The notes under the pieces were generated by a model. That model was given only the letters and a program-made list of their open reading frames with translations, did no database searches and was not told where the DNA came from. A stretch of 64,000 bases of DNA, from assembly GCF_001677475.2 (NCBI RefSeq), contig NZ_CP015229.1, one strand, 5' to 3'. This document shows positions 24,324 to 55,351 of this stretch, piece after piece; within the stretch, counting starts at the first letter, position 1, and every line of letters starts with the position of its first letter. The stretch comes from Escherichia coli (lineage in GTDB: Bacteria > Pseudomonadota > Gammaproteobacteria > Enterobacterales > Enterobacteriaceae). The position numbers and the translations under genes were made by a program.

Positions 24324-24343
24324 ATCACCCTCCGATTAAGGCG

Positions 24344-26616
<2,273 letters not shown>

Positions 26617-26666
26617 GAGCTTCTCCTCAATGCCTTGCGGCCTGCCCTAAGGCAAGCCGCCAGACG

Positions 26667-28208
26667 TTACCAGGATTGGGTTGCTTTGAAGGAATCGAGG
26701 ATGCCTTTCAGCTTGCCTTCGATTTCGTCGTTGTAGCCACCGGTCTGGTTGATCTCTTGCATCAACGGAGCGTGATCACGGTCGACGTAAGCCAGCAGAG
26801 CGGCTTCGAAGCTGCCGATTTTCGACAGTTCAACATCCGCCAGGTAACCACGTTCTGCTGCGAACAGAACCAGAGACTGTTGCGCTACGGACATCGGCGC
26901 ATACTGTTTCTGTTTCAGCAGTTCGGTCACTTTCTGACCGTGGTCAAGCTGCTTACGTGTTGCATCGTCAAGGTCGGATGCAAACTGAGAGAACGCTGCC
27001 AGTTCACGATACTGTGCCAGAGCGGTACGGATACCACCGGACAGTTTTTTCATGATCTTGGTCTGTGCTGCACCACCAACACGGGATACGGAAATACCCG
27101 GGTTAACCGCAGGACGAATACCGGCGTTGAACAGGTTGGTTTCCAGGAAGATCTGACCATCGGTAATGGAGATTACGTTGGTTGGAACGAACGCAGAAAC
27201 GTCACCCGCCTGAGTTTCGATAATCGGCAGCGCAGTCAGAGAACCGGTTTTCCCTTTCACTTCACCTTTGGTGAAGGCTTCAACGTATTCGGCGTTAACA
27301 CGCGCAGCACGCTCCAGCAGACGAGAGTGGAGGTAGAATACGTCGCCCGGGAATGCTTCACGTCCTGGCGGACGACGGAGCAGCAGGGAGATCTGACGGT
27401 AAGCAACAGCCTGTTTAGACAGGTCATCGTAAATGATCAGCGCATCTTCACCGCGGTCACGGAAGTATTCGCCCATTGCACAACCAGCGTACGGTGCCAG
27501 GTATTGCAGTGCAGCGGATTCAGACGCGGTTGCTACCACAACGATGGTGTTAGCCAGTGCGCCGTGCTCTTCCAGTTTACGTACCACGTTAGAAATGGTG
27601 GACGCTTTCTGGCCGATAGCGACATAGATACATTTGATACCGGAATCGCGCTGGTTGATGATGGCATCGATAGCCAGTGCGGTTTTACCGGTCTGACGGT
27701 CACCGATGATCAATTCACGCTGACCACGACCGATTGGGATCATGGAGTCAACGGCTTTATAACCGGTCTGTACCGGCTGATCTACGGACTGACGTTCGAT
27801 AACGCCCGGAGCGATTGCTTCTACAGCAGAGAAGCCGTCGTGATCCAGCGGACCTTTACCGTCGATTGGTGCACCCAGAGTGTTAACCACACGGCCCAGC
27901 AGGCCACGGCCAACCGGAACTTCCAGGATACGGCCAGTACACTTAACTTTCATGCCTTCGGCAAGGTCAGCGTACGGACCCATAACAACCGCACCTACAG
28001 AGTCGCGCTCGAGGTTCAGTGCGATAGCGTAACGGTTACCCGGCAGGGAGATCATTTCACCCTGCATACAATCGGCCAGGCCGTGAATGCGGATAACACC
28101 GTCACTTACAGAAACAATAGTACCTTCGTTGTGAGCTTCACTCACAACATTGAACTGAGCAATGCGCTGCTTGATCAGTTCGCTGATTTCGGTGGAATTC
28201 AGTTGCAT
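26667..28208 (-). CDS. atpA: ATP synthase F1 alpha subunit
   Basis: 513 aa ORF, Walker A GDRQTGKT. Confidence 0.97.
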
Positions 28209-28220
28209 GCTCCAGTCCCC

Positions 28221-28754
28221 TTAAGACTGCAAGACGTCTGCAAGGCGCTCAAGACGACCGCGTACGCTGCCATCAATGACCATATCACCCGCTCGGATGA
28301 TAACGCCTGCCATTACAGACTTATCGATTTTGCAATTCAGCTTAACTTTGCGTGACAGACGTTTTTCCATCGCAGCAGAAATTTTCGCGAGCTGTTGTTC
28401 ACTCAGTGCGGCAGCGGAAATGACGTCTACCTCAGCGGTAGCCTCACTCACGGCACGAAGGTGAATAAACTGCTCCAGAACATCCGGGAGCGCGTTAAGA
28501 CGACCATTTTCAGCCATTACCCGAATCAGGTTCTGACCGTTTTCGTCCAGTTGCTCACCACAAACTGCGATAAACGACTCGGCGAGCGTTTCTGGCGCAA
28601 GCGCGCCAGAGAGAAGCTCTGCCATTTGTTCGTTTTTGGTTACCTCGGCGGCAAACGCCAGCATGTCCTGCCAGCGTTCTACACTTTGGTGTTCGACGGC
28701 AAAGTCAAAAGCTGCTTTGGCGTAGGGGCGAGCTACCGTAATAAATTCAGACAT
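28221..28754 (-). CDS. atpH: ATP synthase F1 delta subunit
   Basis: 177 aa ORF; synteny. Confidence 0.95.
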
Positions 28755-28768
28755 CAGCCCCTCCCTCC

Positions 28769-29239
28769 TTACAGTTCAGCGACAAGTTTATCCACGATGT
28801 CGCTGTTAGCAGCTTCATCCACGGAACGTTCGATGATCTTCTCGGCGCCAGCAACAGCCAGGATAGCAACTTGCTTACGCAGCTCTTCACGGGCACGTTT
28901 ACGCTCGGCTTCAATTTCTGCCTGCGCCTGGGCCACGATTTTAGTACGTTCCTGTTCTGCCTCAGCTTTCGCTTCGTCCAGAATCTGCGAGCGGCGTTTG
29001 TTCGCCTGCTCGATGATTACCTGGGCTTCCGCTTTCGCTTTTTTCAGCTGGTCGGTCGCGCTGGCCTTTGCAAGGTCAAGGTCCTTATGTGCTCGTTCTG
29101 CGGAAGCAAGGCCGTCAGCAATTTCTTTTTGACGTTTTTCGATGGCTGCCATTAATGGCGGCCATACGTACTTCATGCAGAACAGAACGAACAGGACAAA
29201 CGCGATGGCCTGGCCGAGGATTGTTGCGTTAAGATTCAC
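28769..29239 (-). CDS. atpF: ATP synthase Fo subunit b
   Basis: 156 aa ORF with N-terminal TM helix and charged coiled coil. Confidence 0.95.
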
Positions 29240-29283
29240 AGCACAATGCCTCTATTTAGTTAACGTTCTGATATTGCTCTTTA

Positions 29284-29558
<275 letters not shown>

Positions 29559-29586
29559 TCAGTTAAAACGTAGTAGTGTTGGTAAA

Positions 29587-30791
<1,205 letters not shown>

Positions 30792-31407
30792 CACGTTTTT
30801 CACTCCTGCTCCCTTCGAGGTATGCCGCGTGTCGTATAAAACTTTCTTTAAGGCTTAGAGTCAAGCATCAAAAAGCGGTCAAATTATACGGTGCGCCCCC
30901 GTGATTTCAAACAATAAGTAGCCAAAAGGTGAATAAATGTTTAAATATTTTTCCAGTGCATACAATTGCGACTTTTCTGCTAACCATGTTCGATCATGAA
31001 AAACTGTAAATAACGCGTAAACACTGGTGATAAAGCGTGCTTCAGATCACATATTGCGCATGTTCGCGCACAGCATATTTATTTACTTGGCAAATGATGC
31101 CTTTGCAAGTTTATGATATTTCAGTCTAAAAACAGATACTGTTTTAATAAATGACATTTACACAACAAAAACCACCCATTGACATTTTTAATAATGTTTT
31201 AACAGCCAATGATGATTCTTAGCGCCGATTTTTAGCAGACTGATATTTTCACTTATGACTTATTTTCTGCTTACCAAAAAAAGCCACGTTACTTTGTTGA
31301 TGCAAAAGAGTGAACGTGGCGTTAAATGTAACCAGTTATATCAGTAGAAAACCTGGTTGTTGTTAACAGTCTAACCGGTCAATTTTTTATGATTTTTTTG
31401 ATAAAAA

Positions 31408-32031
31408 TTAAATTTTATTTGCTTTAATCACCACCAGATGACGTTCGCCATCCAGGGCCGGAACGTGAAGTTTAACCACTGATTCGACCTGATATTCTTC
31501 GGGCAACAAAGCGATTTCATCTTCCGGCATTTGGCCTTTCAGCGCGTAGAAACGACCTTGCTCACCAGGAAGATGGTGGCACCAGCTCACCATATCGTTC
31601 AGAGAGGCAAAAGCGCGGCTAATTACGCCATCAAATGGCGGCTCAGAAGGAAACTCTTCTACCCTGCTCTGTACTGGCTCAATATTCTCCAGTTTTAGCT
31701 CATGTTGCACCTGACGAAGGAAACGCACGCGTTTACCAAGGCTATCCAACAACGTGAAGTGGGCTTCAGGACGTACGATAGAGAGTGGAATGCCAGGCAG
31801 TCCTGGTCCGGTGCCGACATCGATAAACCGTTCACCTTGCAGATACGGTGCCACCACAATGCTATCGAGAATATGGCGTACCAGCATCTCATTAGGATCG
31901 CGGACCGAAGTCAGGTTGTACGCTTTATTCCATTTATGCAGCATATTCACGTAGGCAATTAGCTGGTTTTTCTGGTGATCGGTAAGCGAAATTCCTGCGT
32001 CTTTCAGCAGAGAGGTGAGTTTGTTGAGCAC
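31408..32031 (-). CDS. rsmG: 16S rRNA m7G527 methyltransferase
   Basis: 207 aa ORF; synteny upstream of the atp operon. Confidence 0.93.
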
Positions 32032-32094
32032 GGTGATTACCTGTTCTTGATGCGTTGCCCGGTAAGCGGGTGCTTACCAGGCATTTTTAATGCG

Positions 32095-33984
32095 TTATGC
32101 GCTACGACGCAGCATACCCTGTTTTTTCAGCCACACCAGCAGAATGGAGATGGCCGCAGGCGTGACGCCAGAAATACGCGAAGCCTGGCCGATAGAGGCC
32201 GGTTTGTGATCGTTAAGTTTGGCGATCACTTCGTTAGAAAGACCGGATACCTGGCGGTAATCCAGCGTCGCTGGTAGCAGGGTGTTCTCGTTACGCAGCT
32301 GCTTTTCGATCTCATCTTGCTGGCGCGCGATATAACCTTCGTATTTAACCTGAATCTCAACCTGTTCAGCCGCCTGATCGTCTGTCAACGCAGGGGCAAA
32401 CGGCGTCAGCGTGGTTAATTTTTCATAAGTCATTTCCGGACGACGCAGCAGATCTTCACCACTGGCTTCACGGGAAAGCGGCGCAGTCAGGTGAGCATTC
32501 ACTTCGGCTGCAGCTTCCGCCGACGGGGTTACCCAAGTCGATTTCAGACGCTGACGCTCACGCTCGATATTCTCAAGTTTCTCGTTAAAGCGCGCCCAAC
32601 GTTCGTCATCCACCAGGCCCAGTTCACGACCGATTTCAGTCAAACGCAGATCAGCATTATCTTCGCGCAGCATCAGACGATATTCTGCGCGCGAGGTAAA
32701 CATACGATACGGTTCTTTGGTTCCTAAAGTGCACAGGTCATCAACCAGTACGCCGAGATACGCCTGAGAACGCGTCGGAGCCCAACCATCTTTGTCAGCA
32801 GACAGACGGGCAGCGTTAAGACCGGCCAGCAAACCTTGCGCAGCGGCTTCTTCGTAACCGGTAGTGCCGTTAATCTGACCAGCAAAGAACAGCCCCTGGA
32901 TAAACTTGCTCTCCAGCGTCGGTTTCAGGTCGCGTGGATCGAAGAAGTCATACTCAATGGCATAACCTGGACGCACGATCTTCGCGTTTTCCATCCCCTG
33001 CATGGAGCGGACGATTTGCATCTGCACATCGAACGGCAGGCTGGTGGAGATACCGTTCGGATAAATTTCGTTTGAGGTCAGCCCTTCCGGTTCAAGGAAG
33101 ATCTGATGTTGATTTCTGTCGGCGAAGCGCATGACTTTGTCTTCGATCGACGGGCAGTAGCGTGGGCCGACACCTTCGATCACCCCTGCATACATTGGGC
33201 TACGATCGAGGTTACTGCGGATCACATCATGGGTTTTCTCGTTGGTATGGGTGATATAACACGGCACCTGCTGTGGATGCTGGGATGCATTACCCATAAA
33301 CGAGAATACCGGCATTGGGTTATCGCCATGCTGTTGCGCCAGCACGCTGAAGTCGATAGTACGCGCATCAATACGCGGCGGTGTCCCGGTTTTCAGACGA
33401 CCAACGCGCAGCGGCAGTTCACGCAAACGGCGAGAGAGCGGAATGGACGGCGGATCACCAGCACGACCACCGCTGTAGTTATCCAGACCGATATGAATTT
33501 TACCGTCGAGGAACGTCCCAACGGTGAGCACGACGGCTTTGGCACGGAACTTCAGTCCCATTTGGGTAACAGCACCGACCACGCGATCGTTTTCGACAAT
33601 AAGATCTTCAACCGCCTGCTGGAAGATCATCAGGTTCGGTTGGTTCTCCAGCGCCGTACGTACCGCCTGCCGGTAGAGCACACGATCCGCCTGAGCACGG
33701 GTAGCGCGAACCGCTGGTCCCTTGCTTGCGTTTAGTATCCTAAACTGGATACCCGCCTGATCGATCGCTTTCGCCATCAGACCGCCGAGTGCATCCACTT
33801 CTTTTACCAGATGTCCCTTCCCAATACCGCCGATCGCCGGGTTGCAGCTCATCTGCCCCAGCGTGTCGATATTGTGTGTCAAAAGCAGAGTCTGTTGACC
33901 CATACGCGCCGCGGCCATCGCGGCCTCGGTGCCTGCATGACCCCCGCCAATGATGATGACGTCAAAAGGATCCGGATAAAACAT
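32095..33984 (-). CDS. mnmG: tRNA uridine 5-carboxymethylaminomethyl modification enzyme
   Basis: 629 aa ORF, FAD-binding [10 protein letters not shown] near N-terminus. Confidence 0.95.
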
Positions 33985-34072: not shown

Positions 34073-34340
34073 GGATCCTGGGTATTAAAAAGAAGATCTA
34101 TTTATTTAGAGATCTGTTCTATTGTGATCTCTTATTAGGATCGCACTGCCCTGTGGATAACAAGGATCCGGCTTTTAAGATCAACAACCTGGAAAGGATC
34201 ATTAACTGTGAATGATCGGTGATCCTGGACCGTATAAGCTGGGATCAGAATGAGGGGTTATACACAACTCAAAAACTGAACAACGGTTTTTCTTTGGATA
34301 ACTACCGGTTGATCCAAGCTTCCTGACAGAGTTATCCACA
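34073..34340. other. oriC: chromosomal replication origin oriC
   Basis: three GATCTnTTnTTTT 13-mers at 34095-34139, DnaA boxes TGTGGATAA (34152-34160), TTATACACA (34258-34266), TTATCCACA (34332-34340), dense GATC sites, between mnmG and mioC. Confidence 0.9.
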
Positions 34341-34362: not shown

Positions 34363-34806
34363 TTATTTGAGTAAATTAATCCACGATCCTAGCCATTCTT
34401 CTGCCGGATCTTCCGGAATGTCGTGATCAAGAATGTTGATCTTCAGTGTTTCGCCTGTCTGTTTTGCACCGGAATTTTTGAGTTCTGCCTCGAGTTTATC
34501 GATAGCCCCACAAAAGGTGTCATATTCACGACTACCAATACCGATTGCGCCAAAGCGGACCGCAGAAAGATCGGGCTTCTGTTCCTGCAATGCTTCATAG
34601 AAAGGAGAAAGGTTGTCCGGAATATCTCCGGCACCGTGGGTTGAGCTGATAACCAGCCAGATCCCAGAGGCAGATAAATCTTCCAACAGCGGACCGTGCA
34701 GCGTTTCGGTGGTAAAACCCGCCTCTTCCAGTTTTTCAGCCAGGTGTTCTGCTACATATTCGGCACCGCCGAGGGTGCTGCCGCTGATAAGAGTGATATC
34801 TGCCAT
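34363..34806 (-). CDS. mioC: flavodoxin-like FMN-binding protein MioC
   Basis: 147 aa ORF; position adjacent to oriC. Confidence 0.93.
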   Translation of the reverse strand: MADITLISGSTLGGAEYVAEHLAEKLEEAGFTTETLHGPLLEDLSASGIWLVISSTHGAGDIPDNLSPFYEALQEQKPDLSAVRFGAIGIGSREYDTFCGAIDKLEAELKNSGAKQTGETLKINILDHDIPEDPAEEWLGSWINLLK

Positions 34807-34895
34807 AAACCGCCACCTTTATTAAGAGTGGCGTATTGTACGCTGTGAACGCGTTGGGATCTACCTGTGGAAAAGTATGGGATTAAAAAAGCCGA

Positions 34896-50126: not shown

Positions 50127-51668
<1,542 letters not shown>

Positions 51669-51763
51669 CCTTAAAGAAGCGTACTTTGCAGTGCTCACAC
51701 AGATTGTCTGATAGAAAGTGAAAAGCAAGGCGTCTTGCGAAGCAGACTGATACGTCCCCTTCG

Positions 51764-51839
51764 TCTAGAGGCCCAGGACACCGCCCTTTCACGGCGGTAA
51801 CAGGGGTTCGAATCCCCTAGGGGACGCCACTTGCTGGTT
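51764..51839 (+). tRNA. gltU: tRNA-Glu (UUC) in the 16S-23S spacer
   Basis: GTCCCCTTCGTCTAGAGGCCCAGGACACCGCCCTTTCACGGCGGTAACAGGGGTTCGAATCCCCTAGGGGACGCCA. Confidence 0.97.
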
Positions 51840-52022
51840 TGTGAGTGAAAGTCACCTGCCTTAATATCTCAAAATTCATCTTCGGGTGATGTTTGAGATA
51901 TTTGCTCTTTAAAAATCTGGATCAAGCTGAAAATTGAAACACTGAACAACGAAAGTTGTTCGTGAGTCTCTCAAATTTTCGCAACACGATGATGAATCGA
52001 AAGAAACATCTTCGGGTTGTGA

Positions 52023-54925
<2,903 letters not shown>

Positions 54926-55018
54926 ACAACGCCGAAGATGTTTTGGCGGATTGAGAGAAGATTTTCAGCCTGATACAGATTAAATCAGAACGCAGAAGCG
55001 GTCTGATGAAACAGAATT

Positions 55019-55138
55019 TGCCTGGCGGCCGTAGCGCGGTGGTCCCACCTGACCCCATGCCGAACTCAGAAGTGAAACGCCGTAGCGCCGATGGTAGTGT
55101 GGGGTCTCCCCATGCGAGAGTAGGGAACTGCCAGGCAT
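55019..55138 (+). rRNA. rrfC: 5S ribosomal RNA
   Basis: TGCCTGGCGGCCGTAGCGCGGTGG...CTGCCAGGCAT; 120 nt. Confidence 0.98.
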
Positions 55139-55190
55139 CAAATTAAGCAGTAAGCCGGTCATAAAACCGGTGGTTGTAAAAGAATTCGGT

Positions 55191-55267
55191 GGAGCGGTAG
55201 TTCAGTCGGTTAGAATACCTGCCTGTCACGCAGGGGGTCGCGGGTTCGAGTCCCGTCCGTTCCGCCA
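55191..55267 (+). tRNA. aspT: tRNA-Asp (GUC)
   Basis: GGAGCGGTAGTTCAGTCGGTTAGAATACCTGCCTGTCACGCAGGGGGTCGCGGGTTCGAGTCCCGTCCGTTCCGCCA. Confidence 0.97.
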
Positions 55268-55275
55268 CCCTAATT

Positions 55276-55351
55276 AGGGGCGTAGTTCAATTGGTAGAGC
55301 ACCGGTCTCCAAAACCGGGTGTTGGGAGTTCGAGTCTCTCCGCCCCTGCCA
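55276..55351 (+). tRNA. trpT: tRNA-Trp (CCA)
   Basis: AGGGGCGTAGTTCAATTGGTAGAGCACCGGTCTCCAAAACCGGGTGTTGGGAGTTCGAGTCTCTCCGCCCCTGCCA. Confidence 0.97.

Follow-up and report, generated by a model that had tools for sequence, protein, structure and literature searches.

The replication origin of an Escherichia coli chromosome and the AT-rich Z-locus in its neighbourhood

Where replication of a chromosome starts, and what this position means for accessory DNA housed nearby, are two questions raised together by a 64,000-nucleotide stretch of an Escherichia coli chromosome (henceforth the window; NCBI RefSeq assembly GCF_001677475.2, contig NZ_CP015229.1), which carries a dense cluster of origin-like motifs and, some 20 kb away, an AT-rich island. 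Our answer, drawn from sequence comparison and to which we would give a probability of about 96%, is that positions 34073 to 34340 should be the single chromosomal origin of this E. coli strain, and that the island should be the known Z-locus, without any tie to the origin. Origin and island location were both already known: the finding is correct, but ordinary.

The origin between mnmG and mioC

The segment 34073–34340 is the canonical E. coli oriC, located between mnmG (gidA) and mioC. It begins with the first G of GGATCC, the site at the start of the classical oriC fragment, and ends with the final base of DnaA box R4. The features of the region are the following, in window positions:

32095–33984, minus strand: mnmG (gidA), left flank, transcribed away from oriC; from its ORF and from synteny with MG1655 and others
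34073–34340, plus strand: oriC as delimited earlier, from the GGATCC site to the end of R4; 40.7% GC, 266 of 268 bases as in MG1655
34083–34094, plus strand: 12-bp AT cluster TATTAAAAAGAA flanking the left 13-mer, read from the sequence; element described in PMC10380432
34095–34138, plus strand: duplex-unwinding element (DUE), with three 13-mers L, M and R; identical to MG1655
34095–34107, plus strand: 13-mer L, GATCTATTTATTT, 1 mismatch to GATCTNTTNTTTT
34111–34123, plus strand: 13-mer M, GATCTGTTCTATT, 1 mismatch to GATCTNTTNTTTT
34126–34138, plus strand: 13-mer R, GATCTCTTATTAG, 2 mismatches to GATCTNTTNTTTT
34152–34160, minus strand: DnaA box R1, TTATCCACA, perfect match
34161–34206, no strand: R1–R5M spacer, IHF-binding site IBS1 in K-12; identical to MG1655; role in PMC10380432
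34207–34215, minus strand: DnaA box R5M, TCATTCACA, from the motif scan
34218–34226, 34229–34237 and 34240–34248, minus strand: what we take, from established knowledge and 11-bp phasing after R5M, to be the low-affinity left array tau2, I1 and I2
34258–34266, plus strand: DnaA box R2, TTATACACA, from the motif scan
34278–34292, no strand: position of the Fis-binding site, between R2 and C3; GAACAACAGTTGTTC in K-12, GAACAACGGTTTTTC here, with SNPs at 34285 and 34289
34288–34329, plus strand: presumably the low-affinity right array C3, C2, I3 and C1, placed from established knowledge and 11-bp phasing leftwards from R4
34293–34301, minus strand: DnaA box R3, TTATCCAAA, from the motif scan
34332–34340, plus strand: DnaA box R4, TTATCCACA, perfect match
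34363–34806, minus strand: mioC, right flank, transcribed towards oriC; from its ORF

Such a concentration of motifs stands out from the rest of the window. GATC, the target of Dam and SeqA, occurs 12 times in these 268 bp, when the window-wide density would predict 1.31 occurrences (Poisson P = 1.6e-8), and the runner-up among all other 268-bp stretches of the 64 kb has 7. These sites, 11 of them in 34095–34340, are at their K-12 positions. If a single mismatch is allowed, four DnaA boxes fall within 189 bp, for 0.09 expected (P = 2.7e-6). The AT-rich 13-mers (GATCTnTTnTTTT) at the left end of oriC form the sole tandem cluster of this kind that a motif scan found in the 64 kb. The GC content follows suit: 27% in the DUE region (34080–34138), 40.7% in oriC, and 51.5% in the window without the island. 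The five boxes R1, R5M, R2, R3 and R4 have the order, spacing, orientation and sequence that they have in K-12. R1 and R5M are on the strand opposite to that of R2 and R4, and this is how the published left DnaA-oligomerisation region is set against the middle and right ones (PMC10380432). The sequence of the left low-affinity array (34218–34248) is that of MG1655, and so is that of the right array (34288–34329), save for position 34289. The strict IHF consensus WATCAANNNNTTR had no match in a scan of the intergenic region of the window, so that the assignment of IBS1 rests on homology.

The genomic context tells the same story. The 378 bp between mnmG and mioC align without a gap to MG1655, with 376 of 378 positions identical (99.5%) and two substitutions, and the feature that RefSeq annotates in MG1655 as 'origin_of_replication oriC' (3925744–3925975) maps to 34095–34326 of the window. 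Of 5426 complete E. coli genomes, 5424 have a match to this intergenic region, the median being one copy per genome, on the chromosome every time and never on a plasmid. Synteny of mnmG, oriC and mioC is the same in MG1655, 120899, 042 and O157. To the right, mioC is followed by asnC, asnA, viaA, ravA and kup, the stretch from mnmG to asnA being the conserved context of the origin; further on, the K-12 order is kept through rbsDACBKR, hsrA, yieP, rrnC (50127–55351), hdfR, maoP, yifB and ilvLXGMED. Apart from the island, the window agrees with K-12 in gene order all the way from tnaB to ilvD. To the left, the 13.8-kb block from glmS to mnmG (20190–33984) is 99.2–99.3% identical to its best E. 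coli matches, strain 042 for example, with which the core genes of the window share about 99.2% identity, and the strain from which the window comes must therefore itself be outside the collection of 5426 genomes.

Composition of the strands changes at the same place. The minimum of the cumulative GC skew is at 33–34 kb, and the mean skew goes from -0.044 left of oriC (-0.029 without the island) to +0.052 right of it. Chi sites follow, with 2 on the plus and 6 on the minus strand to the left and 10 on the plus and 1 on the minus strand to the right (Fisher P = 0.006). The heavily transcribed operons on either side lead away from oriC, namely atp, glmUS and pst to its left and rbs, rrnC and ilv to its right. 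The strand-compositional switch, in GC skew, in Chi polarity and in direction of highly expressed operons, is thus present at oriC.

Could such a cluster of motifs be a look-alike, brought about by chance or left over from a decayed or secondary copy, with the true origin elsewhere? Against this reading we have motif enrichments with P values of 1e-6 to 1e-8, 99.5% identity to an origin that is functional in K-12, a median of one copy per genome with none on plasmids, and a switch of skew and Chi polarity that falls exactly at oriC. The probability that we would leave to it is practically negligible. An oriC carried by a plasmid or a clone was likewise discarded, as were a chance cluster and an additional, inactive copy, in view of the enrichment, of the synteny on the chromosome and of a median copy number of one per genome. 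The origin that a preliminary description of this DNA had recognized from its 13-mers, its DnaA boxes and its density of GATC sites was identified correctly, down to exact coordinates, and is two bases off that of K-12.

Scanning the region brought a few further observations. A DnaA-box-like match, TTTTCCACA, is found at 34866–34874 (minus strand), in the interval between asnC and the upstream end of mioC; K-12 is known to have a DnaA box there that regulates mioC transcription. A third perfect DnaA box, TTATCCACA, is present far to the left, at 1099–1107 (minus strand), inside a tnaB-like ORF (678–1925); it is probably a chance match. In the intergenic region between glmU and atpC, the Rfam model of the enterobacterial sRNA STnc410 is matched at 23635–23792 (plus strand, 188 bits), in antisense to the operons on either side. 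At the other end of the window, ilvG (58879–60525) is an intact ORF of 548 aa, annotated as a pseudogene in K-12 MG1655, and directly upstream of it, at the position of the ilvL leader, Rfam has a match to the 'Rev39 5'UTR' (58570–58859).

How this origin would work can be described after the established scheme of K-12 oriC. The high-affinity boxes R1, R2 and R4 would keep DnaA bound, and the two oppositely oriented low-affinity arrays would then be filled by ATP-DnaA, with the help of IHF bending the DNA between R1 and R5M. The left pentamer would open the AT-rich 13-mers, DnaB would be loaded, and replication would proceed in both directions. After firing, SeqA would sequester the hemimethylated origin via the 11 GATC sites of the minimal origin. 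For the user of this genome, an origin at 34.07–34.34 kb fixes the direction of replication, the leading and lagging strands and the expectations for gene dosage across the window. Beyond this orientation, the finding matters little.

Two substitutions and the Fis site

Both bases that depart from K-12 fall within the position of the Fis-binding site. At 34285, A is replaced by G relative to K-12, a change that strain 120899 has as well. At 34289, G is replaced by T, and this is rare: the exact 60-mer with both substitutions is present in 0 of 5426 complete genomes, and T at 34289 combined with the K-12 base at 34285 in only 3 of the 5426. The change is real, not an error, because the same 378 bp recur unaltered in an independent NCBI assembly (GCA_031299685.2), which was reached via an identical MnmG protein. 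The Fis consensus, GnnYAnnnnnTRnnC, is matched on both strands by MG1655 at the place corresponding to 34278–34292; this match is lost in the window, where 34289 G>T falls on position 12 (R) of the 15-bp consensus. Judging from 11-bp phasing from R4, the same base would lie within or next to the low-affinity box C3, whose sequence is not printed in the text of PMC5716108 or PMC10380432. With the Fis match lost and the vicinity of C3 hit by the same substitution, it follows that regulation strictly as in K-12 is not guaranteed.

It is tempting to go further and to see in the oriC of this lineage a regulatory variant, where loss of the Fis consensus, together with the change in box C3, would alter the timing or the synchrony of initiation. 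The conserved R of a consensus that K-12 matches on both strands has been changed, the resulting 60-mer has no counterpart among the 5426 genomes (and T with the K-12 base at 34285 only 3), and the change recurs in an independent assembly over 378 identical base pairs, all of which fits this proposal. According to the review literature, however, Fis bound at this oriC site has no or only slight influence on initiation (PMC10380432); the DnaA-box consensus is unmatched at 34289 by G and by T alike; and the lineage, which has turned up in more than one sample, is clearly viable. We therefore hold the proposal to be unlikely. A phenotypic effect of 34289 G>T is itself rated unlikely, because Fis binding there affects initiation so little (PMC10380432), and the substitution is probably neutral. 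That the substitution, shared by at least one independent assembly of the same lineage, should make a natural origin variant with measurably changed control of initiation or, in a weaker form, that the EspY-type island described below should be given a growth-rate-dependent dosage, is an idea to which we would grant a slim chance.

The Z-locus and its distance from the origin

The second question is that of the island, which has the following place in the window:

7885–15296, no strand: island, the Z-locus (Z5211–Z5214 / EspY4-type genes), between yieH and phoU; 7412 bp, 31.6% GC (PMC2646131)

Its edges are clear-cut: yieH ends at 7884, the phoU ORF starts at 15297, and no bgl genes are present. 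Its distance to oriC goes from 18,777 bp (edge at 15296) to 26,188 bp (edge at 7885). Sankar et al. (2009) described the Z-locus as an island that takes the place of bgl at a shared site (PMC2646131), with 30% GC, present in 19% of strains, clonally inherited and devoid of mobility genes, and with two large ORFs homologous to one another (PMC2646131). The bgl island is the other occupant of the yieH–phoU slot, and it is the classic locus silenced by H-NS (PMC2646131). In the window, the translations of the two large ORFs show them to be paralogous. Of 5426 complete E. coli genomes, 1109 (20%) were found to have the Z-locus, always as a single chromosomal copy, and the yieH–phoU context is the same in SMS-3-5 and in O157:H7. 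A search with the island gave 100% query coverage and 93.3–93.6% identity in 1088 or more genomes, and 462 of the 1109 copies are only 80–90% identical to the island allele. An island at 93.6% at most, set in a core at 99.2–99.3%, implies that strains differ far more in the Z-locus than in the DNA around it, as likewise remarked by Sankar et al. (PMC2646131).

As for its genes, the names used here are the RefSeq labels in O157 and SMS-3-5, together with those of PMC2646131. The large Z-locus genes are labelled 'T3SS effector EspY4' (one gene, in O157:H7) and 'type III effector protein'; EspX4/EspX5 was dropped as a gene name, the annotation of O157 being EspY4. Scans of the four island ORFs against Pfam and NCBIfam gave only weak, mostly sub-threshold matches to pentapeptide repeats, and thus no functional handle. 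The EspY4-type gene (8021–10446), which has 802 codons' worth of product (802 aa) in SMS-3-5, O157 and a related contig, is here represented by an ORF of 704 aa and an upstream ORF of 90 aa. The central gene (10717–11900), which codes for 395 aa in SMS-3-5, is represented by overlapping ORFs of 207 and 194 aa. These split forms recur in draft assemblies that carry the exact 207-aa protein. Relative to SMS-3-5, two genes of the Z-locus thus look broken, by a stop or a frameshift. The island occupies yieH–phoU as one of two vertically inherited alternatives, and nothing ties it to the origin.

The preliminary description had also put the island 19–26 kb from oriC, next to pst and atp, in a part of the chromosome of high gene dosage and high expression, and had found this neighbourhood unusual for AT-rich acquired DNA. 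The distance (18.8–26.2 kb) and the neighbours are right, phoU-pst abutting the island and atp lying between it and oriC, and the textbook inference that copy number is maximal there during fast growth can be accepted. High expression does not follow from the position, since H-NS typically silences AT-rich acquired DNA wherever it is (PMC2646131; PMC4390576). H-NS repression is reported to follow the local AT-rich context rather than copy number (PMC4390576). For AT-rich DNA of the kind that H-NS silences, a high copy number does not entail a high expression. In the island, expression would most likely be kept low by silencing of the H-NS type, if we go by its AT content and by the literature on the alternative island.

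Nor is the neighbourhood unusual. The comparison of origin-proximal variable loci that the same description had called for brings out two sites much used by accessory DNA at less than 30 kb from oriC. One is yieH–phoU, a conserved slot that is never without accessory DNA, be it bgl or the Z-locus. The other is the junction between glmS and pstS, 14 kb from oriC, which is uninterrupted in only 3004 of 5424 genomes, so that about 45% must carry an insert there, meaning more than about 1 kb at the junction. What is inserted varies: the fimbrial operons lpf2, in O157:H7, and lpf-O113, with an IS3, and, in strain 042, a resistance island of more than 20 kb with mer, tet(A) and a class 1 integron. 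Accessory DNA at both sites implies that proximity of the origin is not unusual for accessory DNA in E. coli. It is commonplace at less than 30 kb from oriC, AT-rich and H-NS-silenced DNA included, and an AT-rich island near the origin is therefore, by that fact alone, no anomaly.

There is a statistical side to the matter. Across the genome, H-NS-repressed genes are reported to be more often close to the terminus than to the origin (PMC4288151), which places an origin-proximal one in a statistical minority, and the island is within about 1% of the replichore length of oriC. This could invite the view that its position is both unusual and functionally meaningful, selected for instance for high dosage or high expression. 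Most other E. coli, however, have the bgl island, silenced by H-NS, in the same yieH–phoU slot; some 45% of genomes have accessory DNA at glmS–pstS, nearer to oriC; the Z-locus is clonally inherited without mobility genes (PMC2646131); and two island genes are broken relative to SMS-3-5, which argues against strong selection for expression. We find an adaptive position very improbable, and 'unusual neighbourhood' is at most a weak statistical remark.

Comparison with known origins and islands

Set beside the oriC of K-12, the classical minimal origin of 245 bp, the origin of the window has the same flanking genes, 13-mers, R boxes, spacing, orientation and GATC positions, and it differs by two substitutions, 34285 A>G and 34289 G>T. 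The glmS–pstS variable locus is, like the slot of the island, an origin-proximal accessory site, on the same side of oriC and 14 kb away from it. In the window this slot (attTn7 / lpf) is empty: pstS ends at 19876 and glmS starts at 20190, leaving a gap of 313 bp (19877–20189).

For the island there are two terms of comparison. The bgl-yieIJ island of K-12 (cbrBC-yieKL-bglHBFG) sits in the same slot, 18.9–28.3 kb from oriC in K-12, and is also accessory and H-NS-silenced, but its genes are unrelated to those of the window island, its length is 9.4 kb, and with 42–54% GC per kb it is only moderately AT-enriched. The Z-locus of O157:H7 and of phylogroup D strains shares with the window island the yieH–phoU slot, a GC content of about 31%, the absence of mobility genes and a gene order in which two large minus-strand paralogues flank a central plus-strand gene. 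The allele of the window differs from the Z-locus as found elsewhere in that its identity to the 1109 copies nowhere exceeds 93.6%, and in having two of its genes interrupted.
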